From Pseudovirgaria hyperparasitica (taxonomy: Eukaryota): a stretch of 52,904 bases of DNA. The stretch is from the NCBI GenBank assembly GCA_010093815.1, contig ML996572.1. One strand, 5' to 3'. The notes beneath the pieces were generated by a model. The model did no database searches, was not told the origin of the DNA, and saw only the letters and a program-made list of their open reading frames with translations. Made by a program: the position numbers and the translations under genes. Of this stretch, positions 1 to 40,688 are shown piece after piece. Numbering within the stretch: the stretch's first letter is position 1; each line of letters starts with the position of its first letter.

Positions 1-1044
1 ACTACTCGCCTTACCAAGTTAGAACGCTTAGTTTCTAGAATAATAAATATTATATTACTAATTACTTACTTAGACAAGCTAATAACCTCGCTCTATATAA
101 TAAATAATATTAATATACTACTCGTAGAGACCGTTTAATAAATATTTAGAATCCGCGGCTATTAACACGTTATATATACTAATATTAATAGAGATTACGC
201 GTACATGGTAAATAACTTAATATATAATATAGACTTATTACGTTTCACTTAGTAGATTATTACTAAGCTCTTCTATTATAGCGTTATACTTAATCGCGTA
301 CTCTATATTTCTATATATACTATCTAACGTAATCTATTTAAAGGGATAGTTAGGAACTCGCTTCTAACTATACTTGCCGTAGCGGATAAAGGTCGATTTA
401 ATACTCTATCTAAGCCGGTATAGAAGCTTATCTAATAGCGTTTATAGGACGGTTCTTAGGGTTATAATAATAATATAGTCCTTATTAATCTAGTCTAAAC
501 TAATTACTTCGGCTTTCTCTTAGAAGGAAACCATAATATTATTACTATTATACGCGCTAAATAGATAATAGTTATTATTACTAACTTCGTATCTCTTAAG
601 AGATAGAAAGTCCTAGACGGTATACTTAGCGAGATATAGAATAAGTACTCTAAGATTTATACGATATACACGTGTATAACCCCCGACCTAGATAGCCTCC
701 CTCTACTCTCTAATATATCTAATCTCTAATATAGTTACTCTATACTTAGTATTAGAGAGAGGGAAGAACGAAGTAATTAATAAACTACTAATAGTACTAA
801 GCCCCGTAAGCCGCTAGTCTACCGTAAATATAATATTAAAGAATATAAGTCTATTAAGTATCTAAGAGGGTTAACGCTTATATATAATAACTATTAGAAT
901 ATTAGCTATAAAGCTAATATTTACCCTAAACCTAAGACGCTTATAGGTACATTTTACTATAATTATAGAACTACTAGTTATACTCAGTGTTATTATCCTA
1001 GCCGTACTAAATTACTAGTATATATAAATAGTAATAATCTAGTT

Positions 1045-1144
1045 AATACTACTAGAGCTAATACTACTAGAGCTAATACTACTAGAACTAATACTACTAG
1101 AACTAATACTACTAGAACTAATACTACTAGAGCTAATACTACTA
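1045..1144. repeat. 15-bp tandem repeat (aatactactagagct), about 6.5 copies
   Basis: Visible tandem units; period is a multiple of 3, so possibly a decayed coding repeat. Confidence 0.9.
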
Positions 1145-2547
1145 ATAAAGTAACTACTAGCGGCTAGGATAATAGAGACTACGAGGATACTAACCGAGAT
1201 AGCGGTATTATAATATATAAAGATATAGAAGTTAATTAGTAATAGTATACGATTAGACTTACGTATTAGGGCTACTTAGTTACGGCTTCTTAGTAAGTAT
1301 ATCTCTATATCTATTTTAGATATAGTTATGATATTCTACTAGATAGATAGTTTAGCTCTATTAAAGACCTATTAAGGGTATTTCTATTACGTCTACTCTA
1401 GTATAGACGCGCTATTAGATAATACGGCGCTACTAGGTACGTTAACTAGTATCTACCGATTAAGAAATAAACACGATTCTATATCTACTATAAGCCCCGG
1501 CCTAATAACGTAGGCTTCCTTTAGTTATCCCCTTTATACTTTTAAAACTACTTCTAGCCTTTATATTAGAAGATATTACTATCTAAAGAGAAAATATAAA
1601 AAAATATACGCTCTAATTAAAGCCTCTACCTTTAGACTTTAACTATAATATATATAGGATATAGTAAACCTAAATATTACGTACTTTAAAAGTATAGAAG
1701 GATATAATACTTAAATATAATAAAATATAGACTTATAATACTCGGAGAGTATCTAGGGATAAGTATATAAATATAAAATGGGATAAGACTAACGCGGTAC
1801 CTTATATATACGTGGCTATATACCGTCCTAGACGTAGTCGCCTACGATATAATATTATAAGATAAGAATTATAGCTATCTAATTCTATTAAGGGTATTAG
1901 ATAATATAAAGTAAATAACTATACGTCTAACCACACTACACTAAGTTACATACATATTATAAACGCGTATTTAAGGAATAATAAGAATATAAATAAGGTT
2001 CACCTAGTAGATACCTTATTATTCTAGCTTCTACCTCTATTATCTAATCTATACCTCTATCTTCCTCACGCCTATAATATACTATATATATACTATATAA
2101 TTAGTCTATAAATTATAAACACTATATTAACTACATACATTAACTACATATAATTAATATATTAAATCCAATTCTATAATAAAGTAACCATCTAAATATA
2201 GTAATTACTATAGTACTACTTCGTATCTTAAGCCTAGATATATAAGTAAAGCATAAAGCTATAGAGGCGCATATAAGGTAGCTATATATAGAAGTATATA
2301 TAGCTACTCTACTCATAGACTATAGGCATTAAACTAAGAATAAGCTTAGTATAAAAAGAGTACATAAGATTATTAATAAGGTAGTAGATAAATTTCTAGT
2401 AGTATAGAAAAGAGTAGTAGAGTATATAGAGATAAAGACACTATACTATATCTATAACTAGGTACGTACTATAGTATAGAAAACCATATATTATAGAAAA
2501 ACTATCTCTAAGTATAAGAAGAGACGCGTAATTATAGCTCTATATTC

Positions 2548-2658
2548 TATAACCTTATAATCCCCACCTATTATAACCTTATAACCTCCGCCTATTACAA
2601 CCTTATAACCCCTATCTATTATAACCTTATAGCTCTTATATACTATAACCTTATAGTC
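2548..2658. repeat. 24-bp tandem repeat (aaccttataacctccgcctattac-like), about 4.5 copies
   Basis: 'aaccttata' recurs every 24 bp; explains the YKVI periodicity in ORF 2491-2739. Confidence 0.8.
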
Positions 2659-3789
2659 TATACTTATAGCGGTCCTATAGCCTACTAATATATATACTAC
2701 AAGAAAAATTAAATTTATAATTAGATTTAATAATAACATATTCCTTAAAATACTAGTACCTATATCTAACTAGTAGAAAGACTATAGCAACGCTTCGTGT
2801 ATTAATTTAGTAGTATTTATATAGCAAATTAGAATCTAATACATAATAAAGACTAGGAGAGCACTAAACTAGAGCCATACTACTATATATTCTATCATAC
2901 TAGTAGTCAAGTATATAATAAGTAAAACAGAACTAGAGGTAGATATTAGATAGCTCCTATAGTTAGTAATCAAATATATTCTAGAATATAGTAATAGTAT
3001 AATACTCCTCAGCCTTAGATAGAATATAGATAGTATACCTAAAGTAAAATAAAATATAAACTAGTAACTAATATATAATAGTATAGACAGCTATATATAG
3101 GTTACACTTAAATAAATCCACCTCTCCATCCCTAATACTATACTCACTATAATTAGTATAATAATAGTAATAGAAAGCTACCGTCTATAACAGTAGAGAT
3201 ACCTACAGAGATAGTATTATAGGTAGTAGATAGTATTATCAAAATAACTTAACCCTTCCTCTAGCAATACTATATATACTACTATTAGTACCCAGAAAGT
3301 TATAAGACTAATCTATAAGCTCTAAAGATAGTAACTTCAAAAGCCTTAAAAGTACCTTAGATATAGAGAATATAGATATCGCTTTTAAAGACTAATAGAA
3401 TAATAAAAAGGGTGCTAGAGATAGTAAGAGTAGCGTACATACTTAGCTAAGGTAATACAATCCGACATAAGACGGCTTCTACCTACTATATATTAGTATA
3501 TACCCAATTCTACTAGCTATATAACTATAGTATATATATTCAGTTAAGATATTACAACACCAGTATAAGCCGGCATCTACCTAGTTTATATTAGAATACA
3601 CCCGGTCCTACTAGCTATATTATTACTATAACTATAATCATATAAGATCTACTCTAATAATTAAATATTTACTTATATACTTTACTTCCTCTATACTTAT
3701 TAAAATTATATTATAATTACTAAACACAGTAACTTAACTCCTACCGCCTAAATCTAGTTTTTATATCTTATTACTATTAACGCTATCTT

Positions 3790-6700
3790 ACTACCTATAG
3801 CCTAAGTTATATATAGAAATAGATAGATATAACAAGAGTCACAACTATCCTAGTTTAACTACCAGCTATAGAATAGCTAACTATAATACGCATATACAAC
3901 GTACAGAGGCCTTAAGCATTAGCACCCTCCTACCTTATATCTAGTACCTCCAAGACCTATATCTAATATCTAAAATAAGTTATAATATATATAGAGCTAC
4001 TATTATTAAGATAGTAAGTAAAGAAGTAGTAATAGAGCTTAAAACTAGTAGTATAGATACTACTATACTCTATAGAATAGTTAAGGAAACCGTTACTAGA
4101 GAATTTAATTAGCATATCGCGGCTATAAATAGTAAGTTAGTACCGACGGTTATAACCATAGATATAATAGAGACTAAACTAGATATAGATACTATAGATA
4201 TAGGTACGTAGATATAGTTACCGCTAGAATATAAGAAGAAAGATAATATAGAAGATACTAAAATAGAAGACGACGTAGCTAGTATACTTAGATATATATA
4301 TATATATATAGTTCTAGATACTAATATTAGAGTAGTGTTAAAGATAGGTACGGCTATAACTACTAATATAGATAATCTATCTATGAATATCGTCGTGTCT
4401 AGCGAAGCTTATCTATATATAAATATACTAGCTATAGAGATATAGTTATAGTTACCGCTAGAATATATAGAGAAAGAGAATATAGAAGATACTAAAATAG
4501 AAGACGACGTAGCTAGTATACTTAGATATATATATATATATACACGGTCCTAGATACTAATATTAGAGTAGTATTAAAGATAGATATAGCTATAACTACT
4601 AATATAGATAATCTATCTATAAATATCGTCGTGTCTAGCGAAGCTTATCTACGCGTAAATATACTAGCTATAGAGATATAGTTATAGTTACTATTAGAAT
4701 ATATAGAGAAAGAGAATATAGAAGATACTAAAATGGAAGACGACGTAGCTAGTATACTTAGATATATATATATATATATATAGTTCTAGATANNNNNNNN
4801 NNNNNNNNNNNNNNNNNNNNNNNNNNNNNNNNNNNNNNNNNNNNNNNNNNNNNNNNNNNNNNNNNNNNNNNNNNNNNNNNNNNNNNNNNNNNNNNNNNNN
4901 NNNNNNNNNNNNNNNNNNNNNNNNNNNNNNNNNNNNNNNNNNNNNNNNNNNNNNNNNNNNNNNNNNNNNNNTAGATACTAATATTAGAGTAGTATTAAAG
5001 ATAGATACGGCTATAATTACTAATATAGATAATTCCCCTACGAATACTATTATACCTCTAGATACTAGTAAGACTTATCTACGGCTACTAGAAATAAAGA
5101 GGATACTCTTAGATAATATAGTAAACCTAGTCGATTCTCCGAAACGCCTAAAACTAGAATATATTATACTACTAGATATTAACTAGTAGATACGTGAAAA
5201 CCAGGAACTATTTAGATTAGTAGATAATTTATATAGTAGATATATATCGGATAGTATATTAGCGAACGGCCTTAACTTTAAAATCCTTTCTATAGATAAT
5301 AACTCTAACGGAGATAAAGTAAAGCTAGATATAGAGGACTTAATTCCGGTAGATAATAATATTAGTACGAAACTATAGAAAGTATAAGTTATACTAAGAA
5401 GTAAGTAGAAATATATACTACTATACTAATATATCTATAGAATATTCGCTATTAATAACTCTAATAAAGTAGTCTAAGCTATCTCTTATTATACGGAAGA
5501 GATATAGTTACTTACTATAAGTATATTTAGGCTTACGCTAGACGACCTAATAAAGAAGTTCGGCTATATACCTACTCTATATCTAGCCTTTAGTATAAGT
5601 AGGTTATATAGGCTATGGGCCGGCTAGTTACTCGCGGTAGTTACTATATTTAAGTAGCGGGCGGGTCCGTAGAAGTACTAGATCTTAGTAGATAGTCTAG
5701 GGCTAGAGAAGATAATTATACTTATAACGTTCATCTACCTTACGTTTTATTAGGACTTTCCATATAATAATATAGAACTTAATCTAGGAAATTATCTATA
5801 ACTAACTTAAGACTTAGGTATAGATAGAAAGTACCTAATATAATCTCTATATCCAATTAAATGTCCGTATAGCTAGACCGATAATTTTATCTATATACCC
5901 CGCCTTTAAGGACTATTTATACTATACTATCTAAGGTCCCTTCTAATAGTATATTAGCTATAGCGCTTTAAATAGATATATAATAATATAGATAGTATAT
6001 TTACCGATTAAATTAATAAACGGAATCTAATAAAGATAATAGTACAGCTAGCGTACTCGAAAACCCTTACTAACGCCTCTAGTATCCGATAATTCTTATA
6101 TATAGACTAATAATACTTAGCTAAGAGATATCTATACCCTAAATAGGAATATAGTATTAATATTAGTAATACTACTAAATTCAAGACTAATAAGGAGTAT
6201 ATTATTAGGGCATGGTTAATTCCCATTAATAGAACTACTACTACTAAATTTCCGTCGCGATATATAAAGAACTATATAATCTATAGTACTATCTAGAGTA
6301 TAGAACTCTAATATCTTAAATCTTTTAAGAGATGTATAGTTATAAGAGTAAAGAGGGCGAAATAATTTAGTACTAAAAATACTTAAACTCGTAAAGTAGT
6401 ATTCCTCGGTATATTAATAGTAGACGAGTTCTATTCTATAAAGAACCCCGATATAAAATAGTATAAATATACGATATATAATACCCTTATATTTAGTATA
6501 TAGGTTAGTATAACGCCCCTCTTAAATAGTCTAGTAGATATTCTAGTAGCTATCGAGGTAGGTACTCCGGATAAGTTATCTAACTATATTAATAATAATA
6601 CTACTAAAAGGGTATTCGAGAGCCTATAGAATAAAACTATAAGAAAGATTATTATAATATAGTTAAATAAACTTCTTAGTTTAATAAAAGATAAGCCGGC

Positions 6701-7372
6701 GGATACGATGGCCGTAATAGTCTATAGGGCATTAGAAACTATAGAAGGTAAGCGTATACTACGTATAGTAGCCGATTAGTATTTACTATTTATTCTATAA
6801 TAGGGACTACTAACTAAATAGTTTAACGGAGAGGCATATCTATCTATAATATTAAAGCTAGTAGTAGAGTTTATATCTATCCCGGCTATAGAACTAGAGA
6901 AGATAATTATATAGTTATACGAGAATAGAGATAGATAGTTTAATAATCTATAGTCTAACGGAACGCCGCGGGACTTATAGATATAATCTACCGCCTAGAG
7001 TAAATTAAAAGAGGGTACTAGGTCTAGACTTAACGCATACTACTATTAGGCTAGGCTAGCTACTACGTATATACTACTTATATACCTTACTAATAAAAAG
7101 ATAGAAGATAAGTAAATTAATATTACGCTTACGCGTTAGAGGGATAGTAATAATAGTATACTAAGTAAGATAATCGCTAATTCTATACACGAAGCGCTTC
7201 TATAGCTAGATAAGGCTATATAAAAGAAGATAGTATCGCTAGCTAATAAATACGCTTCGAAGGTAAACTAGATCTATAACTTTATTAATAATAACGTTTA
7301 TAATAAAAGTACTAGATATACGCGATAAATATCTACTAACTACCTAGAGAAAATTATACTCGTATATACTAT
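3790..7372 (+). pseudogene. SNF2-family helicase/ATPase pseudogene, 5' part (RIP-decayed; start uncertain)
   Basis: One frame carries ILVDSLGLEKI (ILAD..GLGKT, 5682), LIVDEFY (DExH, 6423), VSITPLLNSL (motif III, 6504) and EKIILV (7347). Confidence 0.8.
4217..5032. repeat. About 235-bp tandem repeat with internal (TA)n, at least 3 copies, spanning an N gap
   Basis: Units start near 4217, 4451 and 4687 and share 'gaagatactaaaatagaagacgacgtagctagtatacttag'; unit sequence resumes after the Ns. Confidence 0.9.
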
Positions 7373-7744
7373 TGTGGTGAGCCATCGCCACGTGTATCCC
7401 TTTTATAAATGGCTGTGTTCCTAGTATAGTAGTCGCGACGAACTCACAAGTATCTCTCCTAGGTATTATAAGTTCTCTTTGAACGCACGACTTCTTATTA
7501 GTTCTCTTTTATAATAGGACGGGTCTATATAATACTCTTAATTAATTCTTTAATAGCTAAGCCTAATAATTAATACCTATAGAGGCCCATAAACATAAGG
7601 AAAGGTCGAATAGTCGAATATTAGTAATGGGGGAAGCGCGCCGAGCAGAATGACCAAGGAAAACGCCCTCCTTAAATATATAATGAAGCCATATAATCGA
7701 GCTAGGGACATATATATATAGGGCTGCAGGAGCGGCCTTCCACA
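7373..7744 (-). repeat. 3' LTR of element A (372 bp)
   Basis: tgtggtgagcc...ggccttccaca; matches 18441-18761. Confidence 0.95.
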
Positions 7745-7759
7745 TATACCTCCCCGGCC
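7745..7759 (-). promoter_or_regulatory. Polypurine tract of element A
   Basis: Minus strand ggccggggaggtata immediately before the 3' LTR. Confidence 0.65.
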
Positions 7760-7890
7760 TATAGAACTACTACCCTTAGTAGTGTAGTAACCGTGTGAGA
7801 AACCGTGTAAAGAACGCCTAAAAGAAAGACCTTAATACGAATAAAATGCGCCCCTAGTAAACCTCTTAGCGCGGGTAAACCTTAGCCCGG

Positions 7891-7923
7891 ATTATTAGTT
7901 AAGGGTAGCCCTTAACTAATAAT
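7891..7923. repeat. Shared palindrome copy 1 (attattagttaaggg-tag-cccttaactaataat)
   Basis: Perfect 15-bp arms with a 3-nt spacer. Confidence 0.95.
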
Positions 7924-7955
7924 TAGGTAGGTTTTTAGGCGCCTAATCTTAGTAC

Positions 7956-10877
7956 TTAAGGTCGCGAGCCAGCTCCTAAAGAATCGTGTTCGCTTATCTT
8001 AGAGAGGTTAGATTTCTCCTTATCAGATAGTTTATTAGGCCTCTTCTATCTATAGAAGTTCTCTTTAATATTATCTAGACCCGCGTCGGACTCGAATTTC
8101 TTAAAATTAATTAGCCGCTTAGCGGCGCGCGCCTCATTAAATTCCTTCTAGAACGACCTATCCCTATAGACTAGCCTTTTCTACCTTACTATTTTCTTAA
8201 AGGTCTCTACGAATACCCTCGAGCCCTCCTTAAACCAGGCGTCTATCTTAGCTTTAAGTTATTAAGGACTTACGTTAAGCTACGTAGCTACCTCTTCTTT
8301 TACCTCCTAGCTATTCTATCTTTTACGGCCGACTAATACGTTACTAACGGCGTTAAAACTCGGGAGTTAAACTACGGCTAGGAAGGTAAAAGGAATCGCG
8401 CTATATTTATTAGAAAATCCTAACGGAGACATAGGTCCCGGAGTTAAATTCCTATAAGCTACTACGAGTTGTTCCCATGTACCTATTTTAGACACTTCTA
8501 TTATTATGTGATTAGGGCTAATCGCGATATACTATAGAAGCATCATACATCTTCTACCCTTTACGGGACCCTAGGCGCCGTATATTATTAGTAGGCTAGA
8601 GATATGTACTTTAAGGGACTAGTAGGGGACTAGGACGAAGGGACTAAATCGTTTCTTATCGTCCGTATTATAGATCTTATCATTAATAGCCGTAATTATA
8701 CCGTTTCGATTGACCCCCTCGCGGAGCTTAGCCTTCGACTACTATTTATTTAAGAACTTATAGGAGCGGGGAACGATTATAGTATAGTTATTACTTCGTT
8801 CGTCGTCGAGACTAATACTCCCCTAGATCATGTTAAACCCGTATCTATCGCTAGGATCGAGGATTCGATTAATGGCGTTATCGAGATACTTAAAACCCGT
8901 CTTATTACCCCTATCCTAGGACTTCGCATAGTACGGGTACGAGATTAGATAGTAGTTAAGATCGGGCCGAAGAGCGATATAGGTGAGCTAGTAAAGTAGG
9001 CATTACCTAATAAACTATTAGATATAGGAGTAGTATGTAGTTCGTAGCCAGCCGTAGTTCGATTTCTTATTAAACATGCGCTGGTGGTACTTATACATAT
9101 TAAATTCATCCCTCGCGAGTTCTAGAATACTCTTATTAAGTATAGAGGTCGTCTTTTTAAGTGGCTCGAAGAGCCCTTTAATATTAATACTTCCGGTACG
9201 TTCCTACTCGTCGAAGAGTTATCTATCTATCCTACTATCCTCCTTCTAAATTATAAATGCGATACTAGTAAGGATGGTTTTAATATTAATAACTTGCTTC
9301 GGGGTCTCTAGGGCCTAGTAACAATAGACACCTAATACCTCTATCAGATAAGGTAGCCACGCGTACTTCGCGAACCAGATATAACAGTCCTTATAAACTT
9401 TAAGGGCCCCTACGTTATCTCTAAACTTATATACTATTTTAAGTCTCGCTACTAGGTTTAAGTAGGACACGCTAACGAGTATATTATTCTTTCTAGCCAC
9501 GTCTTGGTAATGCTTATAGTAGACTTTATACGGAACAGCCATGTTACCTATCTACGCTTTCTAGCGCACTAGTAGGGCCATTCCCTTAATACTCGTGAAA
9601 TTCTTCTTTAATAATATAGCTACCTTAAAAGTCTTCGTTACTAAAGGCGCGTATTAATACTTCTTAGGCTCGTCCTCTTCCTTAACCGATACTATTATCT
9701 TAGAGTACGAACTAAGAATAACCGGGGATTATCGTATAGGCGCCCCTAGTAATTACTAAGGGCCGGTAGATAAGGCACGTCCGCGAGTAGGTTTTATCGG
9801 TATAGCCGTAATAGATACTAAAGAGGTTCTTACATGGCCCGGTAAGGGATATATACTAGTAGTAGTAGAAGGAATACTTACTTTAAACGGACGACTAGCT
9901 TTAAAGAGATAACGTGCTACTAAACTAGAAGGCGTGCTTCGTGGAGGGGACTTTACTATAGACGTTACCTATACTAGTTTTAGTAACGGTAAGGTCTAAG
10001 GCGGAGGCAATATACTCATCTCTTTGATTTATAGGTAGTATTCGACGGGCCTATAAACCATTCTACTTATCTATAACTATTAACTAGCGGGGATAATAAG
10101 TCCTATCTTATTATAGAACGTTAGTTTATTTTATCGGCTAGGGTAGTTCGAGAGTTACTAGAGAGATAGACTATCCTCGTTACTATCGCTAGCTAGGGTA
10201 GCATCGATATTAGAGCTCTAAAGATATACCTTAATTCCCCTTCCCTTCTATCCCTAGCCGATTCGGGACTATAGAGATACGTTTAACTAGTTCCTCGCTC
10301 TCGCCTATATCCGCATTCGTAAGAGCGCTACTAGCTTTTCTATAAAGTTCTATGTTTACTAGAGCTATCCGAGGGCGGATTAGAGTAACTAGCTATTATT
10401 ATTAGGGAGGTCTTTTCGCTAGTTTTATAGGATCGCATTTTTGGCTTTTAGGATATGGGAGTTAGTATCTCTTCTATAATAAATTATCTTATAGACTTCT
10501 TTCGGAATGGAGGAGTTAATCTTTACCTTACTATACCCTATTACGGCTCCTACTTCCTAGAAGAGGTTAACTATACTACTTAAGAGCTATTCTATAAGGC
10601 TAGTAATGTGAAGGAGATTATTAAATATATCTAGAATATAGTCCTATCGCTCTTACGGGTCCTAGATAGCGATGATTCGGTTAATAGTAGACTTATTTAC
10701 TTCTATAGCTTCTATAGCCTATCCGTGCGGAGTAGTAGATGGCCTCGATACTATAATAGCTATTAATGGCCCTACTTTAGTACTTACGACTCTTAACTAG
10801 GACCGCGTCTATCTTATTAGTACTTAACGATCTTATAACTCTTTATAGGTAGGCGTTTTCTTTTTCGGCGGGGCTAT
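7956..10877 (-). pseudogene. Extra gene in element A: long N-terminal region plus PhyH-like 2OG-Fe(II) dioxygenase domain (RIP-inactivated)
   Basis: Frame of ORF 9542-9315 reads through TAG/TAA stops: EFNMYKYHQR..NYGWLRT..ALRPD..LISYPYYAK..TGFKYLD (HLD), MI*GSISLDDE, IIVPRSY, IIYGA*GP..RR (HGA); in-frame putative start ata-gcc-ccg-ccg-aaa-aag-aaa at 10877. Confidence 0.7.
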
Positions 10878-10924
10878 TATTATTATTAGTTCTATTAGCG
10901 AGTTACGTTCTAAGAAGAGATAGT

Positions 10925-11280
10925 TAAGCGAGGCGGAAGTAGAGGAGGAGGTTTTATCGATTAAGGAGGTATAGAGAGGTGTAAGAGGAAAGAGTTATAT
11001 ACTATCTTAAGTTCTCTTTTTATGCCTCCTCGAATGCCGGGTATATAGTAATTTTTATAAATGATTCTTGCTAACGGCTATAGGCCCGTATACGTGTCGA
11101 ATCTATGAATGAATATATACTAGGTATATAGGAAATCTATGAATAAATGTGTCTACCGGGTATATAGCGGAATCTATAAATAAATAGATACCGGGTATAT
11201 TCTTATCCTTATAAGACTTCCTATAAGTATCTTTTTCTTCTATACCTCCTCCTTCTTTTCTTCCTTATTAGTTTCTAATA
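10925..11280. promoter_or_regulatory. Putative bidirectional internal promoter of element A
   Basis: Minus-strand TATATAA (~10995-11001) followed by a CT-rich tract toward the extra gene; plus-strand tataagta (~11222) followed by a CT-rich tract; repeated ccgggtatat motifs in between. Confidence 0.45.
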
Positions 11281-11434
11281 GGGCCCGTTCTATAGTAATA
11301 AAATAGGCCTTTAATAGGTGGGCTTCGATTACACGACCGGCTTTAATATATGGTAGATAGAATTCGCGTAAACGCCATTATGTCTTCTTTCGAGCATTGC
11401 TTACTTTAATAATAAGTTTTATTATTTTATAGTA

Positions 11435-11503
11435 ATGATAGGGTTTATCATCCTCTTTCGATGATAGAGTTCATCGTCCTTTTTCGATGATAGAGTTTAT
11501 CGT
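11435..11503. repeat. 26-bp tandem repeat (gatgatagagttcatcgtcctttttc), about 2.5 copies
   Basis: Visible tandem units, each with a short internal inverted repeat. Confidence 0.75.
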
Positions 11504-14500
11504 TATAAGACTACTTTTATAAGTATCCCTTCCCTCCTTAAAAAAACTTCTATCCTCTAGAAGAAGATATTAATTCTAGGGAAACATAAATATTCTTCTC
11601 TATTAAAGTCTTGCGGAGTAGGAATTACTACTTCTACCCGGGTTCGTGTAGCGTCATCGAGGTGTTCCATAAGTTATTTATAATAGTTTTCCTTATCGCT
11701 ACTCTCCTTATTTTCCTTGGTAATTCTTCTAATTAGTAGTCGCGAGGGCTCGTTATAACTCTTATTACTTATATTTCTCATGAAATATTTCTTTAATCTA
11801 TGGCTAGGAAACGTCCCTCTAAGCATGGCTCTATTAAGCTCCGCGAGCTTATAAGTGTAATTAAACACGGACTAGATTCTATATGGCCCTCTCTAATACT
11901 ACCTTAGCTTCCGCCCTATATCCTTCTATTACTACGAGTCGTATAGAAGGATAATTATATTAACTAGTAACGACTCTTAACGAAGGTAATGGTTATTATT
12001 CTATGCCTCTCTCGATTCCTCACGCGTTCGTGTTACGTAGATATAGGCCTCCTTAAGATCCTCGGATCTTCTCTTAAGTTATCTAGCTTAAAGAGCGAGT
12101 AAGTCGGACGTTAATCGCACCTCGTCCTAAGGGAGTATTTAGAGCGACTCGAATTCGACTTTAATAGATATAATTAGTTTATGGCCGAGCACGAGGTATA
12201 TAGTACTATACCCTATACTAGTACGTGTCGTTATTCTATCTACCTAGACGACCGCATAGAGGTGGCCGGGCTAGTTCTTAAATCCGCTATTAGTTATCTT
12301 CGCGAGAGTATTAGCGAGTAGTATAAAACTTCTCTTAATAATTCTATTTACTCAGGGATTATACATAGACGTAACCTTCTAATAAATTCTATAGAGTCAG
12401 AGGAGCTCCTCTATAGCACCTATATTTTCTCTACTACCATTATAGGTGATTTTAGGAATGATTCTATATCTATAGATTACGTTCTTAAAGAGGAACTTTA
12501 CGATAACTATGGACGTGGCCGCCGTACATGCCTCCGCCTTAGTCTATCCGCTTAGCTATTCTTATATAGATACTACTTTACTATACCCTATAGAAGGTAG
12601 TAGCGTCGTTACGTCTAAGTATATTCTTTACTAAAGAATAGGCGTTATAACATGGTGGAGCCCTTTATTAAGACCTCTAAGGAGTTTACTTCGTCGTTAA
12701 TATTTATTATAGGTTTTCACGTGCTATCGCACGTCTCTACGTATACCTACCTACTAATACTTATTCTTAATTCTTCCGAGGGTCCCTTTACTACCTCTAT
12801 AATCTATCTTATTATAAGTAGCGGTAATTATACACGCCCTAGTATTCGGATCCTTAATTACTCGTGTATGTTAGCGATACCTATCTTCTCTCTACTAGAG
12901 TATTTGGTCACGCATAAGGAACTTTAGATAGTCGGTTATAAAGGCCTTATACGCTCGGTCGGTTAGATTAGTTAGCCTCTTAAGTATAGTAAGGTATTTC
13001 GTAATCCTCTACTATTTATTACTATATTTATCTATTAAGGGAGACTTAATGGCGGTATAGTCGAGTGTCCCTATCGTGTAATCTCTTCTACTAACGGGCT
13101 TAATTAACGACGTCTCTAGCACGTCTATATATAGAGCTATGTCTATAAACTCGTCTAGGTTAAAGGTAGAGATGTCTAGTGGTTCTTCTCCTTCGTATAT
13201 CCGTAAGATACTATCGGTGACTACGTTACGCTTCCTAGGTACGTGCCTAACTATAAAGTTCTATAGCTAAATCCACGCGAGCCACCTAGTAACGAGCGCC
13301 CCTAGTAAGTTAGTTACGGTATAGTTAATTTAAGCGACTAGAGTATTCGCGTCTATTTCTATAATAAAGTGCGTGCTATAGAGATATTACTAGAACTTCT
13401 ATAACGCGTGGAGGAGGGCTCGGTACTCTAGCTTCACGGTATCGTAGTTTCTCTTAGCTTTTAACTATATTCCTCTATTATACCGCGATAGCTAATATTT
13501 ATAATTCTCGTTCTCCTATATTAACGTAGCTCCCTACCCAACGTTACTAGAGTCCACTACTAGGATTATATCTTCTGTATCTATCCCGTACCGTAACGTT
13601 GTTAGTGCGGGAGTAGTAGTTAGAGCTATCTTTAGCGCGTCTATCGAGGTCTACTCCTTAGCTATCTACTACTAGGCCGATTTATTCTTTAATAGTATAA
13701 ATAGCGGCGATGCGATAATAGCGTACCCGGGGATCTATATCCGGAAATATATATAAACGCTAAGGAAGGCTCGTATATTCGTCGTGTTTTTGTAGGGTTT
13801 CTAGTCCCTAATAGTAGTAACCTTTTTATTACTCGGTCGCCTCCCTTTAATGTCGTAGATATATCCTATAACGTTAGCGGCTTTAACATACTACTAAGTC
13901 TTCTTACTACTTAGGGCGTATCCGGCGCGCTCTATATCCGCGAGAACCTTATCCACGTTAATTAAATATTCTAGGATATACCTACGAATTCTAGGTAGGG
14001 CCTCCTTAGAGTTATATTTTATTATAGGTCCTTTAATGCCTAAGTCATCTAGGAATAGTAGAGCCCTCTCCGGGATATGTTCTTATATAATAGTTAATAT
14101 AATCCTAACGAACTAAGCTACTAAATTAGTAGCCCCTTAAGGTAATATTATCCCGTGTAGTAATCCTAGGGGCGTTATAAACCCCGTTAAGTCTTAGTAA
14201 TGCTCTACTAATAGAATCTAATCATATTCTAAGAAGAAGTCGGTAAATGTTAAGACGGCTATCCCCGTAAAGTGCTCCGAGAACTCTTTATATAAGGGCG
14301 GCGTGGCCGTATCACGAATGGTAACTTAGTTAATTTCTATCGCCGAATTAATTAACCTATAATCTCGTTCCTTATTAGCTTCCTTCTTCTTTTCTATAAG
14401 AAAATAGACGTTTTAATAAGGACTACTATAGGGCTCGAGCCTTCCGCTATTAAGACGCTCTTTTAGAATCGTAAGTACCTTCCTATAAAGGGCTCTAGAA

Positions 14501-15191
14501 ATGTTAAAGTTCTTGGTCTACTATACCTTATGTTCTACCGTTCGGATCTCCTACGGAGGTACCACCTCTTCGTTAAATTTACTAAGGTATAAGAATTTCT
14601 ATGCTAGTACTTTCTCGCGATATAATAAGATTATATATAGTAACTTAAGTTCCGCGGGACGTAGCTCTATTCTAATCTTTAGCTAACTTATACGTAGAGG
14701 CGTTAGACGTGTTCCTAGCGGGATAGTTACCCTTCGAGGCTCTATTAGTCTATTAAACACGTTAAGGCCTAGATAGACGGCTAGAAGAAGTGTCTACCGT
14801 GCGATTACTTATTTACGCTAGTCTAGATACCCTAATGGATTTCTAGGAACCTTTCGGTGGGCTTCGGAGTTATCCACGGGGTGTACTTTAACTCCCTTTC
14901 TTTTATATATAGTAGCTATACTAAATCCCTTTAATACCCCGGATGAATACCGTCTTTAGAGGCCGGTAGAGCCTACTATAAGCCGTTCTATTATCGTGCC
15001 TTATTTATATACGAAGGTAGCGTACCTTACCGCCATAACTAGGGCGGCTAAGTTATCTTTTCTCGATAACTAAGTAATATTTTTAGGCCGGATTTTCTCG
15101 GAAAGTAACTCTATATAACTTATTTCTATATCCATATAAAAATATAGCCTATCCCCTTTATTAGTGGGTTTACCGGACCCTATTTAGTACG

Positions 15192-15226
15192 GATTATTAG
15201 TTAAGGGTAGCCCTTAACTAATAATC
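15192..15226. repeat. Shared palindrome copy 2, between protease and RT
   Basis: gattattagttaaggg-tag-cccttaactaataatc, perfect 16-bp arms. Confidence 0.95.
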
Positions 15227-17908
15227 TAGCTTAACTCCGGCTTCCGGCGACATGCTCCGCTATATAGTTAGTCTCTAGCCACGGAGTTACCCTCCTTCTC
15301 TAAGACTAGAATATACTTATCCGGACTAGTTTCGAAGGTTATACATTCTTATCTATATACGGAGTAGACTATTAAGAGTACTTACCTAGAGGCTAACCTC
15401 TATACCGTAAGTAAGGCCTATCTAGTATATAGCTCCCCTAGGATAAGGTTATAATTAAGTTCTCTATATATAAATATTAAAGTGGCCGTAACGATCCGAC
15501 CTATATAGATAGGGTATTACTATACTATTCCCACGAATAGAGTACTATACTAAGTAGCGCTAACTAAACTCGAGTTCTTTATATATAGTAGAAGCGAAGA
15601 TATCGCTAGCCTAAGACGCCTCGTAGCATCTAGTTAAATACTATTTATCTATGCGCCACTATCGAATAGTACTATACTAGTCGCCCTTTTAGGACTAACT
15701 TCTATAGGGTATCTTAGACACTTAGCTACTAGCCTTACTATCTCTTCCTTAAGCTAATTAATATCTTATTACGTAATAGCTATCCCCGTAGTATAGAGGG
15801 GTACTAATACGTTAAGTTTATTTATCTCGGGAGCTATTATATGGTCGTTTCTTCCTTTCTTCTCGGCTCTCTCTTCTTAAGCCTTATAGACCTCTCTAGC
15901 TATAAAGTCGGGAGCGCCCTTCTTAAATACCGCACGACGTAAGTCGCTATTAAGGCTTAATAGTTCGCTAATAGTAATGTTCATGGTTATCTCTAGAACG
16001 CGCACCAGCCATACTTCGCTAGCTTCTATGCTTAGCCGCTATCCTTCGCGTAGATAGTTATTAAGCTTAACGCCTTAGATACGTGCCTTTTAACTAGAAT
16101 TTAGGCTATCCCCTTTATCTATCTTATCCTCTAGCGCCGTTAGCTCTTATTTAGACGTTCCCTAGTCGCTACTCTTCTCGCCGTCCTCCTATTCCTTAAT
16201 AATCCTTATATACTACCCTTCATGCATTCTACGGAGACGGGCGATCTTTCTTTTCTTAGTACGATTAGGTATACTCTTTATAATCCCCCTTCTAGATATT
16301 ACGAGCATAGCGGGCTCTTCTAGAGCCATCTCCTCGTGGATATATCTATTACTAGCTACGTCGAAGCGTTCATAGAATTCTATATATCTATCTTTCTTAC
16401 TCTTGGGCGACGTGACTTCTTCTTCTAAATCGCTATCCGCTAAGGCCTAGTAGGGACCCTTTATAGATTTTATACTAATACTATATACTAGCACTCCCTA
16501 TAAAGCGTTAATATTTACTACGGACGTAGAAACCTTCACTCCTCCTCCGTACTAGCTTAGGCCGTTTTAAACCGTTACTACGTAGTTCCGGATAGCTTAT
16601 AGAGTAGCTTATGGCCCTACCGAGGAGGGTAGTAATAGAATTTCTTCTCCGTTCGTCCTAAAACGCCCTTAGAATACTCGCACCCTATTAATATTTAGTA
16701 ATCCGTCTCTAATGTATCCTACTATCTCTAGACATCTATATATTAGGTAATCTCCTCTATATATAATATATATAATTAGTCTTCGAGGTCTATTCTAGGC
16801 TATAACGCCTTCTTAGGAGTCTCGGGTAGAGACGTATTCTCTATTCTATATATAATTCTATAGATAAACTTACGTTAGTTCTATAGATATACCTTATACT
16901 TAGAGATATACTAAAAGATTTAGCCTTCGCGCCTACTAGTTAATAATGGCCGAAAGTAGCTTAGGTTCGTACTTCTTAAGGGATGGGAATAAGAGATTAG
17001 AGGTAAAGTAGAACTTCATCTTAATTAACGTGAGGTCTAGTTTACTAAATCTCTCTACCATCTTATTAAACTTATCCGATTCTAGCGCGACGTGTACTAC
17101 GACTAGAGAGGGGTGGTTAAATTCATTAGTTCTTCTTTCTTCATGTGACTACTCTTCTAAGCCGGTCTTCTTACTCTCTATCTTTAATTTATGGTATATG
17201 GCTATAGCTAGCTCTTATACGGCTAAGTACTTATTAATACGAGCTAGTTTCTTAAGTGCTCTAGCCTTTCGTGATACGAAGCTATAGATAATTACCTAGT
17301 CGTAACTATGTACTTCTATCGTAAGTTAACATTTCTCTATAGCCCGAGCCTTAAGACTATTAGGTAGCCCTTCTAGGAAGAGCTCTATTCGCGAATACGA
17401 GCTTAGGCTTCCTTTAGCCGTAAGTTTCTCCGTGATAATATAATACTAGGAGTAGTATATGGGGAGAGAGTAGGATGGGTCTACTTTAACCATTTCCACG
17501 TATTTTCGGATAAAGTAGATGGTACCTTCCTTAAGGGCAGAGTTAAATGGAGAGAATTCCTTTAATAATTCTTCACGTAGCGTGGCCTACTACTATTTCT
17601 AAAACCTACTTATTCCTTTAATAGTAGGATAGAGATAGTCCTTATAGTATGACGGTAGGGAGGTTATCTTCTTATTAGGCGGAACTTTATAGTTTATATA
17701 TATGTCCTTATACTTCTAAAGGAAGGCCGTAATGTTTATTCCTTTAAAGCGCTTAGGGGCTAGAATAGATAGAGGTACTATCCTTCCTTATCGCGTAAAT
17801 GCTATGAAGAAGTTAAGTATCTCTCTACGAGTTACTAGGTTATTATTTTAAGCTCCTATTATACTATTACTAGTAGTAGGTATACTAGTAGAGACGCTAG
17901 GGGTAAGG

Positions 17909-17936
17909 TTATTAGTTAAGGGATTACCTTAACTAA
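17909..17936. repeat. Shared palindrome copy 3 (degenerate), near the gag start
   Basis: Exact left arm ttattagttaaggg, then atta-ccttaactaa. Confidence 0.8.
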
Positions 17937-18419
17937 AGGTTAGCCTAATGCGTCTACCTATAACACCTATCATCCCTTCTCCATGTTAACTAATCCCTTT
18001 ATAAGGTAAACTATTACTATCGTCTTTATCGATATAAGGTTCACGGTATCCTACTTATATTATTATCTTCGTGTAAGGCGTTCCTAAAGTAGTATACTCG
18101 TATAGCCGTGTTTATAAATAACAGCTATAGTAGTACTAAATAGATTATATTTATCGTTTTTAAACTCTTCTTTACTACTTCATCTAGCCCTATTTTATAT
18201 CCTATTCCCCTAAGACATTTTCGAGTCGTGCTATCACCCGTGTTAGCATGCGTATACTTTTTACAGCTACTTTTAAGAGGCTAGCCCCTAGCGACTCCGG
18301 ACTCCCTATTTTCCGGACTCGTAGCTTCGATCTAGTAAATCTAGACTACCTTATTAGGCACGCTATATACTTCCCCTAAGCTAGTTTCGGAGTCCTAATC
18401 TCCCCCTATAAGTTCGTAG

Positions 18420-18436
18420 TCCGGGTATAACCTCTA
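18420..18436 (-). promoter_or_regulatory. Primer binding site, probably tRNA-Gln
   Basis: Plus strand tccgggtataacctcta resembles a RIP-altered fungal tRNA-Gln 3' end (..CCGGG..ACCT-CCA), 4 nt from the 5' LTR. Confidence 0.65.
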
Positions 18437-18440
18437 AAAT

Positions 18441-18761
18441 TATGGTAAGCTATCGCCACGAGTGTCCCTTTTATAAATGGCTATGTTCCTAGTATAGTAG
18501 TCGCGACGAACTCATAAGTATCTCTCCTAGGTATTATAAGTTCTCTTTGAACGCACGACTTCTTATTAGTTCTCTTTTATAATAGGACGGGTCTATATAA
18601 TACTCTTAATNNNNNNNNNNNNNNNNNNNNNNNNNNNNNNNNNNNNNNNNNNNNNNNNNNAGTAGAATGACCAAGGAAAACGCCCTCCTTAAATATATAA
18701 TGAAGCCATGTAATCGAGCTAGGGACACATACATATAGGGCTGTAGGAGCGGCCTTCCACA
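18441..18761 (-). repeat. 5' LTR of element A (contains a 50-N gap)
   Basis: Matches 7373-7744 apart from transitions and the gap. Confidence 0.95.
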
Positions 18762-19250
18762 CTATATTAGTAAGCTTAATGTTTCTATACTTAGTAAGTA
18801 TTTATACTACCTACTAGTAATATAATTCACTAATATATATAGGTACTACGTCTATATATATAAGCGAAAATATTAGTATATTTACTAGCCGGCCTAAGTA
18901 CGTCCGAATTAAATAAGGTATATAGATTATTTAGATTAACTAAGTTAGATTCTCCGTGTATTCTACTAGTATTAGCTTCGTAGGTCTATAAAGGATAAGA
19001 TCTAATAGTTACTAGTTTTATAGTATTAGTAGACTAATACTTACGTAAGAAGACGTGGCCGTAGATAAGTATAAGATATTATTACTATAGATAATATTAG
19101 CCTATAGTATATATATATACTTTAATTTTAGACTATTTAGAGGTTAAGGCTAGACTTACCGCGTTAGGTAAGGCAATCGAAAGTATAAGAATATAAGCCT
19201 TAGACCTAGGAAAAGAAGATATAGCTATAGTAGAGATAGCTATATCTAAT
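18762..19250 (+). pseudogene. SNF2-family helicase pseudogene, 3' part after the LTR insertion
   Basis: Continues across TSD CTAT; intron-like gtaag..ctaat..tag at ~18793-18842; motif VI-like R-x-H-R-x-G-Q-x-x-P-V after RIP correction at ~19075-19120. Confidence 0.6.
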
Positions 19251-19784: not shown

Positions 19785-19975
19785 GATTCTAAAAGAACCG
19801 GGATAGCTCTAGAAGAACTAGTAGGACGACTCTAGAAGAACTAGGATAACTCTAGAAGGACTAGAACGACTCTAGAAGTACCGGGACGACTCCGGGAGGA
19901 TTGGGATAACTCTAGAAGTACCGGGACCCATTTAGGATAACTTTAGAAGTACTAGAAGACCTAGAAGTATTAGGA
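19785..19975. repeat. About 20-bp degenerate tandem repeat (gactctagaagaactaggac-like)
   Basis: ctctagaag core recurring about every 20 bp. Confidence 0.75.
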
Positions 19976-20019
19976 GCGTCATATCTTTTCTAATGTAAGT
20001 ATTCTATTTATACTAAACG

Positions 20020-20160
20020 TTCTATTTATACTAAACGTTCTATTTATACTAAACGTCCTATTTATACTAAATATACTAGTTATACTAAATATTCTATTTA
20101 TACTAAATATACTAGTTATACTAAACGTCCCGTTTATACTAAACGTACTATTTATACTAA
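20020..20160. repeat. 18-bp tandem repeat (ctatttatactaaacgtt), about 8 copies
   Basis: Visible tandem units. Confidence 0.9.
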
Positions 20161-22318
20161 TAGAATAATTAGTACTAGTTATTCTCTTAATACTAATTAG
20201 CTTACTAGTACTACTTATTTACTATATACTAATCACTCTCATAGAATAAATAGTATATAGTATTTTAGCTTCTCTATCTACTCTACCTACTCTATCTACT
20301 CTATATACTCTATCTATTTTAATAGAAGTCTCTTTTCTAAAGTAATATCTTTATCTAAAGTATCTCTATAACTCTATATATCTTATTATTTTAAATTATA
20401 TCTTTAGTATATTTAATTATAGTCTTTAAATTTAATACTAGAAAGATAGTATATAATAGAGAGTAGAGGTTAAAAATTAATTAGACTAGGAACTTAAATT
20501 AAATAGTACTATTCTAAGCTCTCTCCGACTATATAGCTATAATAAAATATAGTAGACCTTTCTTTCTTCTATCTTTAGAAGGTATCCTTTATCTATTAAA
20601 AGATATTCTTATCTAGAACTATCTTTAATAACCTTTTCTTCTACTAGATACTTCCCTCTATATTTCTAGTTACTATTTTTATTCTCTTTTATATTATCTA
20701 TTCGGCCTCGTGGTAGTCTATATAGTTCTCTAGCTATATACTAATATCCGACTTCTCTTAAAAGTATATACTCTTTATATATAGATTAAAGACCCGACTT
20801 AAACGTCCGCTACTATCTAACTTTATTTTAATTTAAGTATTAGTCGGGGTAGATAGACTACTAGTTAAGGTAGCTATAACTAGAGATAATAAGTTAGTAA
20901 TAGACTTATTTATACTATATATATATATATATACTATTATTTACTATTCCTATAGTTACTTAGAGTAGATCTATACTTAATATCTAAGATAGTATAATCT
21001 TATCCGTAGCTACTACTAGTAGTATAGAACTCTTATCTATATCTAATAGTATATAAGATAATTTAAGGTACTTATCTAACTAGTTTAGAGTATCTAACTT
21101 ATTCTTTTTATAGTAGTTAGTATCTATATAGCCTCTATAACTTTAGTATATACTTATATTATCTAATAGCTTAGACTTCTTACTCTTATCTAAGTTATCT
21201 ATATTTACTTTAGAGAAGTTATCTAGGTTATCTTTATATAGATTTATATATATAGTATCTAGGTTAATTAGTATTAGTACTATAAATACTAATACTATTA
21301 GTAATTTTTAAATATAGTTAATATAGTAGGGCGCCTAGTTCGACTATATTAGGCTTAGCGCTTACTATTTCTCTATATAATTTAGTATATAATTAGATAA
21401 AAGTATATATATATATCTAGTATTAGTAGAGAGTATACGAATCTATAGTAACTAAAGAATAAGTTTAGTATCTACCCGCTACTATATTTATTAAGGGTAT
21501 GCCTTATTATAATATATATAATAGTAATTATAGATAGTAGGATTAGTTGGAATATACTACTATAGTACTCCTTTAATCTAAGGAATCTTAGAGACTATAG
21601 TAGAACTAACTTTAGAGCCTTAATTACTACTAGCTCTATAAATATTTTCCGAGTTATACTAGTATTATACTAATAATTAGTAATATATCTAATATAATAT
21701 AAGTAATATACCTTTACTTCTATATACATGTTATTATATATTAGGTTACTTATACTAGCTTTTCTTTTCTTAGCTATCTTCTAGTTCTAGTATTTAGATA
21801 CTATCTATCTAACTCTAGAGAGGAGTTAGTAATAGAAGTTTATTATATCTTTCTTTACTAGCGTAATAATATAGACGGGAGATATATTTTATAAATTATA
21901 ATTAAGGTAGTAGCTACTAAGATTAATATCTCTAGCGGCTATCTAGGCTACTATCTAGCTATATATTAAGGTAATTAAATACTAGTAGTAACCGGTCTAA
22001 AAACGTTATAGTAATTAAAATCTCTATTATTATAAGATACTAGTCTTATTTATAAGACTAGAGACTATCTCTATAAGACCGCCTCTTTTTATAGATAGTT
22101 AGTTCTCTCTCTACTACTATTTCTCTATCTTCTTCTATTAAGCTAGATAGCTAATATAGTAGAGGAGAGGATATAAGACCGTAGTATCCCTAGTTACTAT
22201 TACGGTAGAATATTACTATGATATCTAAGCTATATAGAGCGTTACTACTATATTTACTACTAGTATATCTAGACTACTAGTTTATTAGTAGATAAATAAA
22301 CACGTTAAGATAAGCTAG

Positions 22319-30843: not shown

Positions 30844-31606
30844 TAATAATAATAATATTATATAACTAGATAGAGTAGTACTCTATAGGCCTATGCCTTC
30901 TCTAGTCTAAGCTACTATATAAGAAGAAACCCTATAGAAAAAAACTTCCTTATATCTATAACTATATCTCGTTAAACCTCTATTTTATCTTAAGTATATA
31001 GCTATAGAGTACGCCTATTAGTCTATAGCCTATATTACTATTATTTTACCCTTAGATAGTACGTATAGATATAGAGGTTATTAGTTAAGGGCTACCCTTA
31101 ACTAATAATCGGGGTTCTTCCGGGGTTCTTCTAGTATATATTAGGTTACTACTAGCGTATATCGGGTCTCTTCTAGTATATATTTCTAGGTCTACTAGTA
31201 CTAGAGGAGTAGTAGATATATAAGTATCTATTAGGAGACATTCTTAGGGTACTTATTAAGCTATTATATAATATCTAAAGTCTTTATAATATAGATAAGC
31301 TATTACCGTTATATATAGAGGTTAGGGTATATAGCTAGATAGTAGCGTATTATACCTCTCTAGCCGTATACCTTATACTATAGGGAGGTATTAGGAACGC
31401 CTCTCTTATAGAGGTAGTATAGAAGTTCTATAGTATCTATTCGGGCTTAGATAAGTATAGATACTTAGGCTTTCGTTAGCCCTTTATATATCTATTTACT
31501 TAGTTCCTTCTATAGTCCTTAAATCTACTCTAGATATCTATCCTACTAGAAGGTCTAGTAGATATAGAGTATCTCTTTCTACTTGTCTTAAGTCTACGAC
31601 TATATG
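30844..31606 (-). mobile_element. 5'-truncated copy of the Tad1-like LINE
   Basis: Reverse complement of ~40160-40925; (TTA)n tail; 17-bp TSD ttaactactatccttaa (30827-30843, 31607-31623). Confidence 0.95.
31078..31108. repeat. Shared palindrome copy 4 (3' UTR of the truncated LINE)
   Basis: ttattagttaaggg-cta-cccttaactaataa. Confidence 0.95.
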
Positions 31607-35881: not shown

Positions 35882-35912
35882 TTATTAGTTAAGGGCTACC
35901 CTTAACTAATAA
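35882..35912. repeat. Shared palindrome copy 5, 2 nt before the ORF1 ATG
   Basis: ttattagttaaggg-cta-cccttaactaataa-cc-ATG. Confidence 0.95.
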
Positions 35913-40640: not shown

Positions 40641-40657
40641 CTCTAGGAGAACCCTAA

Positions 40658-40688
40658 TTATTAGTCGAGAGTAGCCCTTAACTAATAA
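40658..40688. repeat. Shared palindrome copy 6 (LINE 3' UTR)
   Basis: ttattagtcgagag-tag-cccttaactaataa; keeps a CG where other copies have TA. Confidence 0.9.

Follow-up and report, generated by a model that had tools for sequence, protein, structure and literature searches.

We analyzed a 52,904-nucleotide stretch of DNA from the fungus Pseudovirgaria hyperparasitica (contig ML996572.1), which we call the window. Positions 7373 to 18761, read on the minus strand, hold one dead Ty3/Gypsy long terminal repeat (LTR) retrotransposon that has been mutated by repeat-induced point mutation (RIP) and that belongs to a lineage of Pezizomycotina. Behind its pol gene lies a decayed third gene (positions 10877 to 7956), here called the cargo, whose intact relatives encode a predicted PhyH-type Fe(II)/2-oxoglutarate (2OG) oxygenase. 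We consider it probable that this Gypsy lineage carries the oxygenase gene as its third gene after pol, that the enzyme is active, and that the gene has been retained because it aids the spread of the element.

An earlier note, made from the letters of the window, had described an LTR retrotransposon with a cargo of about 970 codons, of which the part translated there (about 9540 to 7956) had been read as a single sense frame broken by TAG and TAA stops only. The minus-strand translation of positions 10877 to 7956 comprises 974 codons in the sense of the element and contains 64 stops (20 TAA and 44 TAG) with no TGA. All amino acid strings quoted in that note were present in it (NYGWLRT, ALRPD, LISYPYYAK, GFKYLD, MIxGSISLDDE, IVPRSY, IIYGAxGP, and RRCMM). 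The density of stops does not set this frame apart from chance, since an antisense frame with only 56 stops is likewise free of TGA. That this stretch was a gene therefore follows from homology and not from stop counts. A phmmer search with the window cargo against 1.84 billion representative sequences found 551 proteins at an E value of ≤1e-3, 295 at ≤1e-10, and 72 at ≤1e-30. The best match (P0005, 911 residues; E value, 1.5e-71) aligned residues 388 to 874 with residues 413 to 910 of the query. Matches span residues 410 to 917 of the window cargo, approximately, and the cargo can be aligned to its relatives over its full length, the N terminus included.

The damage to the window copy has a clear pattern. 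Among 106 columns conserved in at least 90% of 25 relatives, the window agrees at 59 and differs at 47, and 35 of these 47 differences can be explained by C-to-T or G-to-A changes alone. RIP thus accounts for the decay of this copy. The first codon of the cargo is one such case: it is now ATA in place of the start ATG and is followed by APPKKK.

A search with residues 470 to 880 of P0005 returned 173 proteins, mostly of 800 to 1000 residues. By these sequence searches, the family appears to comprise more than 500 sequence clusters of proteins, mostly of 800 to 1000 residues. Among the records listed, nearly all that bear a name are “hypothetical”; PhyH is the name given in two JGI records. Every organism named belongs to the Pezizomycotina (Coccidioides posadasii, Rhinocladiella mackenziei, Sclerotinia borealis, Venustampulla, Coleophoma, Xylona, and many lichen fungi), and a single record labeled Sphagnum is probably a fungal contaminant. 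No fusion of pol and cargo was found among the longer proteins searched, which is weak evidence, and a pattern scan for bacterial or archaeal relatives matched nine stretches, none of which was confirmed.

Two groups of residues stand out in the alignment of 135 relatives, which we numbered by open reading frame 3 (ORF3) of L018, an intact metagenomic element. The first is a catalytic set consisting of His638 (133 of 135), Asp640 (132), His739 (134), and Arg749 (134). Arg749 lies ten residues past the distal His739, a spacing that is probably PhyH-like, and it is likely the residue that binds the 2OG C5 carboxylate. The second is Cys397-x-Cys399...Cys443-x2-His446, conserved in 135, 126, 133, and 130 relatives, respectively, and probably a zinc-binding site. 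In the window copy, the HxD metal-binding motif (8880 to 8888, minus strand) reads TAT CTC GAT, with Tyr in place of His at 8888 to 8886, and the distal metal-binding His (8580 to 8582) has become a TAC Tyr codon. The earlier note had reconstructed His at both places, and the relatives bear this out. An Arg-Arg pair (AGA AGA, 8550 to 8555) is present, and its first Arg is the likely 2OG-binding residue. In the Cys/His site, all three Cys residues are now Tyr codons. With 64 stops, both metal-binding His residues replaced by Tyr, and three of the four Cys/His site residues lost, the window's own protein cannot work. A nuclear localization signal, which the same note had read into the APPKKK start, did not hold for the family. 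Only 10 of the 135 relatives have the basic cluster K[KR]x[KR] within their first 60 residues, and it is thus no family feature.

Fold tests were run on the intact L018 ORF3 (986 residues; AlphaFold model from a 72-row alignment) and not on the broken window copy. The model had a mean predicted local distance difference test (pLDDT) score of 76, with values above 90 over most of residues 120 to 245 and 390 to 900, and it was disordered at the first 52 residues and in a linker at 247 to 383. On this model, the cargo protein of intact elements, about 850 to 1000 residues long, would consist of four parts: an N-terminal helical domain, a disordered linker, the Cys/His site, and a C-terminal PhyH-type Fe(II)/2OG oxygenase domain. 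In the window, the N-terminal domain corresponds approximately to 10130 to 10700, as judged from the alignment. The C-terminal domain, comprising the Cys/His site, a helical part, and the double-stranded beta-helix core, corresponds to 8133 to 9665 by phmmer coverage and the L018 fold (both minus strand).

Foldseek found 191 matches to the L018 model in the PDB at an E value of ≤1e-3, and the top ones were all Fe(II)/2OG oxygenases (DUF1479/YbiU, GriE, SnoN/SnoK, EvdO1, EctD, and proline hydroxylase H11). The VIA structural comparison ranked the DUF1479/YbiU group first. Entry 4rgk gave a Z score of 20.6 over 279 aligned residues (root mean square deviation [rmsd], 3.3; model residues 524 to 825), 7twe gave 20.2, and Candida GIG2 gave 19.1, while GriE (15.6) and EctD (15.2) scored about five Z units lower. 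Overall, VIA matches ran from a Z score of 20.6 down to about 14 over model residues 524 to 861. The catalytic triad and the Arg lie on or next to model strands 636 to 639, 739 to 741, and 749 to 752, which, from what is established on 2OG oxygenases, are the places expected in this fold. Together, the modeled double-stranded beta-helix and the conserved HxD...H...R set agree with the PhyH-like assignment made in the earlier note. We therefore describe the C-terminal domain as a predicted double-stranded beta-helix Fe(II)/2OG oxygenase of the PhyH type, with its modeled fold closest to DUF1479/YbiU. The N-terminal domain folded alone with a pLDDT of 87. Against 48,161 chains, VIA-align gave a best Z score of 6.0 to a helical hairpin only; Foldseek gave no match at an E value of ≤1e-3; and the ESM Atlas gave no usable feature match, with structure rows at template modeling scores of ≤0.34.

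We then asked where the gene sits in other genomes. The loci were the best 80 of 133 confirmed stretches from a scan of metagenome contigs. Linkage to pol and gag was scored by tblastn with the window pol and with the intact L018 gag-protease and pol as queries. For 26 of the 80 loci, at least 3 kb was available upstream of the inferred cargo start, and these informative loci were tallied by hand. Full pol lies directly upstream on the same strand at 10 of the 26 (L016, L018, L037, L048, L050, L052, L060, L069, L072, and L079). At three more, which are one sequence found three times (L022, L023, and L025), only a C-terminal fragment of integrase is present. Five further loci also have pol, either at a contig edge (L071, L075, and L077) or in contigs with overlapping ends (L046 and L055). 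The ends of the latter two repeat exactly or nearly (167 and 127 nucleotides). They are circular-looking assemblies of an LTR element whose pair of LTRs has been merged into one; hence the cargo precedes pol in them.

Homologs inside LTR elements, which the earlier note had called for as a check, were found at six loci where an LTR pair encloses both pol and cargo (L018, with LTRs 99.6% identical, L037, L048, L060, L072, and L079). L018 is fully intact. Its ORF1 (582 to 3515) encodes gag and an aspartic protease, ORF2 (3737 to 7105) is pol, and ORF3 (7462 to 10422) is the cargo. Pfam detected the protease in ORF1 and RVT_1, RT_RNaseH, Integrase_H2C2, and rve, in this order, in ORF2. ORF3 ends about 35 bp before the polypurine tract GGCGGGGGAGG and a TGTGG LTR resembling that of the window. 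L016 has the same three ORFs, also intact. The cargo occupies the same place, between pol and the polypurine tract, in at least five deeply diverged pol lineages. It is a lineage trait and no one-off insertion.

The two intact elements also allowed us to measure constraint. Between L018 and L016, the ratio of nonsynonymous to synonymous substitution rates (dN/dS) was 0.071 for the cargo, 0.069 for pol, and 0.173 for gag-protease, at a dS of 0.33 to 0.56. In this pair, the cargo is under purifying selection as tight as that on pol. Across lineages, cargo and pol divergence rise together, with the cargo 32 to 42% identical between lineages. Wherever nodes are resolved, the pol tree of 13 elements is also in agreement with their cargo tree.

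Trees of the whole family were less decisive. A quick tree of 90 rows, from which eight loci with fewer than 300 aligned residues had been dropped, placed pol-linked copies in at least five places. Its backbone was unresolved, and its RIP-damaged rows were aberrant in composition. In a 36-row tree of intact rows only, well-supported branches did not force more than one origin. An approximately unbiased (AU) test did not reject a single clade of six intact pol-linked copies against 12 pol-less copies (P = 0.876). One 11-row clade consists of pol-less copies only, with 99% support in the Shimodaira-Hasegawa-like approximate likelihood ratio test (SH-aLRT). The nearest relative of the window in the tree was L063, in which 284-bp direct repeats surround the cargo and pol was not detectable between them. 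Both rows were flagged for composition, and their pairing may be an artifact of RIP.

A further signal came from the spacer between pol and ORF3 (L018, 7105 to 7570; L016, 8297 to 8760). It is 92% identical, at a surrounding dS of 0.33 to 0.43, and contains a nearly invariant stretch with a perfect palindrome of 11-bp stems (TTTTCCATGCC/GGCATGGAAAA in L018 and L016). Because the spacer is so similar despite diverged synonymous sites, we believe that it holds a functional signal for ORF3, probably regulatory or structural in the RNA, such as a promoter, a splice site, or an RNA structure. This conserved spacer is the one hint at separate transcription of the cargo. The true start of L018 ORF3 is probably Met37, since the first ATG of L018 is GTG in L016; the ESM Atlas record also begins there.

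Members of the family were found in several other genomic settings. L012 holds a 6.4-kb unit (6368 to 12774) with 72-bp inverted repeats (6368 to 6438 and 12703 to 12774), an ORF matching the rva_4 integrase-core model, an ORF of no assigned family, and the cargo; this unit is possibly a DNA transposon with the same cargo. In L027 (2911 to 13444) and L032 (7457 to 17121), the cargo adjoins Helitron Rep/helicase genes on the opposite strand, and in L033 (6506 to 14523), it adjoins a DUF6589 gene. The same conserved, uncharacterized neighbor lies on the opposite strand in all three, and 249-bp direct repeats bracket the whole unit in L027. In L022 (2254 to 13260; the same sequence as L023 and L025), 290-bp inverted repeats bracket a distant cargo paralog (1044 residues; 21% identity; E value, 4e-9), the integrase C-terminal fragment, and an intact cargo, and this copy groups with a Coccidioides protein in the tree. 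Other neighbors were Plavaka, DDE_1/DDE_3, DEAD-helicase/OrsD, and DUF6589 genes, and ordinary genes, e.g., those for Snf7 and fungal rhodopsin-domain proteins, were also present.

We propose that, in living elements, the His-x-Asp...His triad of the enzyme would hold Fe(II), that the Arg ten residues past the distal His would hold 2OG, and that the enzyme would oxidize a substrate. The gene would have been retained because the enzyme helps the element to spread, a benefit that we infer. The predicted enzyme is very probably active in intact elements. Our preferred, unproven, proposal is that it acts on a macromolecule tied to host control of the element.

Several results weigh against a dedicated PhyH-type enzyme of the element. 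Pfam found no match in the read-through translation of the window, PhyH (PF05721) included. Among 20 relatives, a PhyH match (E value, ≤0.01) was seen in five, all weak, and just one (22.5 bits) reached the curated gathering cutoff of 22 bits. With 1 of 20 relatives at the cutoff and no match in the window copy, the family is an outlier of the PhyH clan at best. L018 ORF3 itself gave no PhyH match by Pfam, and PF05721 was precomputed for 12 of the 120 relatives listed; the weak matches cover the triad-bearing strands. The closest structural matches are to small-molecule hydroxylases and proteins of unassigned function and not to modifiers of nucleic acids or histones. The dN/dS values come from one pair of similarly named records. 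Finally, 13 of the 26 informative loci have no adjacent pol (L006, L012, L013, L021, L027, L032, L033, L043, L051, L061, L063, L070, and L074), which shows that the protein persists away from LTR elements, where it may be of use to the host. The expectation that the cargo is not a one-off insertion was borne out by the pol-linked loci, but the family is not confined to LTR elements.

It is possible, though short of probable, that the oxygenase serves the element without erasing any silencing mark and acts instead on a protein (Gag, integrase, or a host restriction or trafficking factor) or on a small metabolite. In addition to the DUF1479 proteins, the best structural matches are hydroxylases of amino acids and small molecules (GriE, EctD, proline hydroxylase H11, and SnoN). 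Neither the 20 relatives nor L018 ORF3 had a TET/JBP, AlkB, or JmjC match by Pfam at an E value of ≤0.01. TET/JBP and AlkB were also absent among the structure-search matches listed, which leaves room for a distant relation. However, nothing singles out any protein or metabolite, a fold match says little on substrate, and with its large additional N-terminal domain and its Cys/His site, the protein does not resemble a simple metabolic enzyme.

A silencing-related mark on nucleic acid or chromatin, as suggested in the earlier note, would be a rather unlikely substrate in our estimate. At least as doubtful is a wider picture in which the cargo represents an unnamed family of mobile-element oxygenases of Pezizomycotina that is native to the Gypsy lineage, has moved into or out of terminal-inverted-repeat transposons, Helitron-associated units, and host loci, and erases a genome-defense mark. 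Candidate marks in that case would be 5-methylcytosine, histone H3K9 methylation, or some modification of RNA or DNA on which RIP or quelling draws. If this were true, the family would be the ascomycete retrotransposon counterpart of basidiomycete TET/JBP on a PhyH/DUF1479-like scaffold and thus a new class of demodifying enzyme.

Very unlikely, in our view, is a host gene that travels as a passenger and is useless to the element, with the LTR-linked copies being incidental captures. The loci without adjacent pol, some of them among the ordinary neighbors named above, would fit such a history. Against it, the cargo is as constrained as pol between the two intact elements, it occurs at the same ORF place in at least five deeply diverged pol lineages while cargo and pol divergence rise together, and the AU test does not reject a single LTR-linked clade.

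All features of the window element are given on the minus strand. Direct repeats about 11 kb apart and 94 to 96% identical form its LTR pair. The 5′ LTR (18441 to 18761) runs from TGTGG to CCATA, and the 3′ LTR (7373 to 7744) runs from TGTGG to CCACA. A run of 50 N (18611 to 18660) in the 5′ LTR splits the repeat match in two. A target-site duplication, ATAG, lies on either side (18762 to 18765, read on the minus strand, and 7369 to 7372). No tRNA-complementary stretch that could serve as a primer-binding site was recognized after the 5′ LTR; RIP may have destroyed one. The leader, gag, and aspartic protease region (15277 to 18440) is heavily RIP mutated and was followed in frame P0002; residues 819 to 971 of the intact L018 gag-protease match 15741 to 15277 by tblastn. 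The pol region (11695 to 14928) encodes reverse transcriptase, RNase H, and integrase. Positions 14928 to 11695 match residues 42 to 1099 of the intact L018 pol at 34.8% identity (E value, 7e-159), and RT_RNaseH is still detectable by Pfam in frame P0002. All of gag, protease, reverse transcriptase, RNase H, and integrase lie in one minus-strand frame, and the collinear matches to L018 gag-protease and pol follow the order of protease, reverse transcriptase, RNase H, and integrase.

Downstream of pol, a spacer (10878 to 11694) in which no coding frame stands out leads to the cargo pseudogene. The earlier note had credited the cargo with a TATA box and a CT-rich leader of its own. A CT-rich tract just 5′ of 10877 and TATA-like strings are present there, but they are indistinguishable from chance in such AT-rich DNA. 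The position of the cargo between integrase, where the pol match ends at 11695, and the 3′ LTR stands as first described. The polypurine tract GGCCGGGGAGG (7750 to 7760) lies just upstream of the 3′ LTR, in the same place as its L018 counterpart. The window has 32% G+C and a strong RIP signature (TpA/ApT, 1.68; [CpA+TpG]/[ApC+GpT], 0.17). The same two indices are 1.76 and 0.25 for the cargo and 1.74 and 0.25 for pol; the customary cutoffs are about 0.89 and 1.03.

There is next to no case for positions 10877 to 7956 as DNA foreign to the element, whether a nested insertion or a frame that arose by chance in AT-rich sequence: stop counts do not single out the frame and the window holds no second copy of the element, yet the order of LTR, gag-protease, pol, ORF3, polypurine tract, and LTR is that of intact L018, no internal repeats bound the stretch, its RIP level is that of pol, its homology is strong, and its collinearity with L018 and with five other loci in which LTR pairs enclose pol and cargo refutes the idea. 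The idea of an LTR-borne oxygenase gene, in turn, survives because the His residues are conserved in the family, the modeled fold is a double-stranded beta-helix, and homologs lie inside LTR elements.

Other repeats were seen in the window. A palindromic repeat of about 42 nucleotides occurs twice in the element, just past the cargo stop (7882 to 7923) and in the gag/protease-pol region (15184 to 15225), and these two copies are 95% identical. Shorter copies lie at 31075 to 31114, 35882 to 35912, and 40657 to 40691. This palindrome could be a small foldback element or a hairpin. On the plus strand, positions 45093 to 46343 hold an unrelated reverse transcriptase-like stretch (21.6% identity to L018 pol residues 191 to 609; E value, 4e-7), a similarity that suggests a further decayed retroelement. 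The AT-rich flanks of the element contain tandem arrays at 1008 to 1172 (15-nucleotide units), 4058 to 4763 (236-nucleotide units), and 19963 to 20232 (18-nucleotide units).

To our knowledge, additional genes for enzymes have rarely become fixed in LTR retrotransposons, and every case so far has pointed to a conflict between host and element. Other Ty3/Gypsy elements have third ORFs, such as the env-like ORF3 of insect errantiviruses and the extra ORFs of plant elements. These occupy the same position in the sense orientation, between pol and the polypurine tract or 3′ LTR; the predicted product of the cargo is an enzyme and not an envelope- or movement-type protein. If the substrate is a silencing mark, the cargo would encode a new eraser and open a way to study how retrotransposons escape the genome defense of fungi. 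If it is not, the work would still define a family of more than 500 clusters and place the DUF1479-like fold in a biological setting. Because L018 and L016 are intact, these metagenomic elements allow a direct test of the question. We found no description of a fungal LTR retrotransposon with such an oxygenase gene in a search that left most subscription journals, Repbase reports, and supplements outside its reach, so that an earlier description may exist. In the main text of “LTR Retrotransposons in Fungi” (Muszewska et al. 2011, PMC3248453), the terms dioxygenase, oxygenase, and PhyH are absent.

By fold, the closest known proteins are the DUF1479/YbiU/Candida GIG2 group (4rgk, 7twe, 2csg, 2dbi, and 6akz), with Z scores of 18.4 to 20.6 over 267 to 281 aligned residues (rmsd, 3.3 to 3.8) and, for 7twe, an alignment that extends back to model residue 423. 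The likeness is one of fold, with no relation at the sequence level. A profile of the cargo family searched against all PDB sequences gave chance matches only (E values, 0.3 to 1), and Pfam scans of the 20 relatives and L018 ORF3 gave no DUF1479 match at an E value of ≤0.01. These proteins have about 400 residues and are without the N-terminal domain, linker, and Cys/His site of the cargo. In the literature searched, YbiU appears chiefly in papers on E. coli genes without experimental evidence of function.

By biology, two systems resemble the one described here. TET/JBP genes have been reported in many DNA transposon lineages of fungi (Kojima 2025, PMC12730594). They too are HxD/E...H 2OG/Fe(II) oxygenases carried as an extra gene by several kinds of elements, with a proposed anti-silencing role; like them, the cargo family is found across several mobile contexts. 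The cargo differs in its PhyH/DUF1479-like modeled fold with no TET/JBP Pfam match and in its hosts, which are many classes of Pezizomycotina as opposed to the rusts, mushrooms, and Pezizomycetes named there. The second system is a set of Ty3/Gypsy elements of Phalaenopsis orchids with an additional ORF for an AlkB-type N6-methyladenosine (m6A) RNA demethylase (Alvarado-Marchena et al. 2022, PMC9289625), likewise a 2OG oxygenase. As reported there, the orchid case involves plant hosts, an AlkB domain of demonstrated activity, and a recent acquisition in one lineage, whereas here the hosts are fungi, the PhyH-like domain and its activity are predicted from sequence and fold, and the divergence between lineages is deep. 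The orchid AlkB pointed to m6A control, and the transposon-borne TET/JBP genes pointed to cytosine methylation; here, a fungal Gypsy lineage conserves a different predicted oxygenase scaffold no less tightly than its pol.

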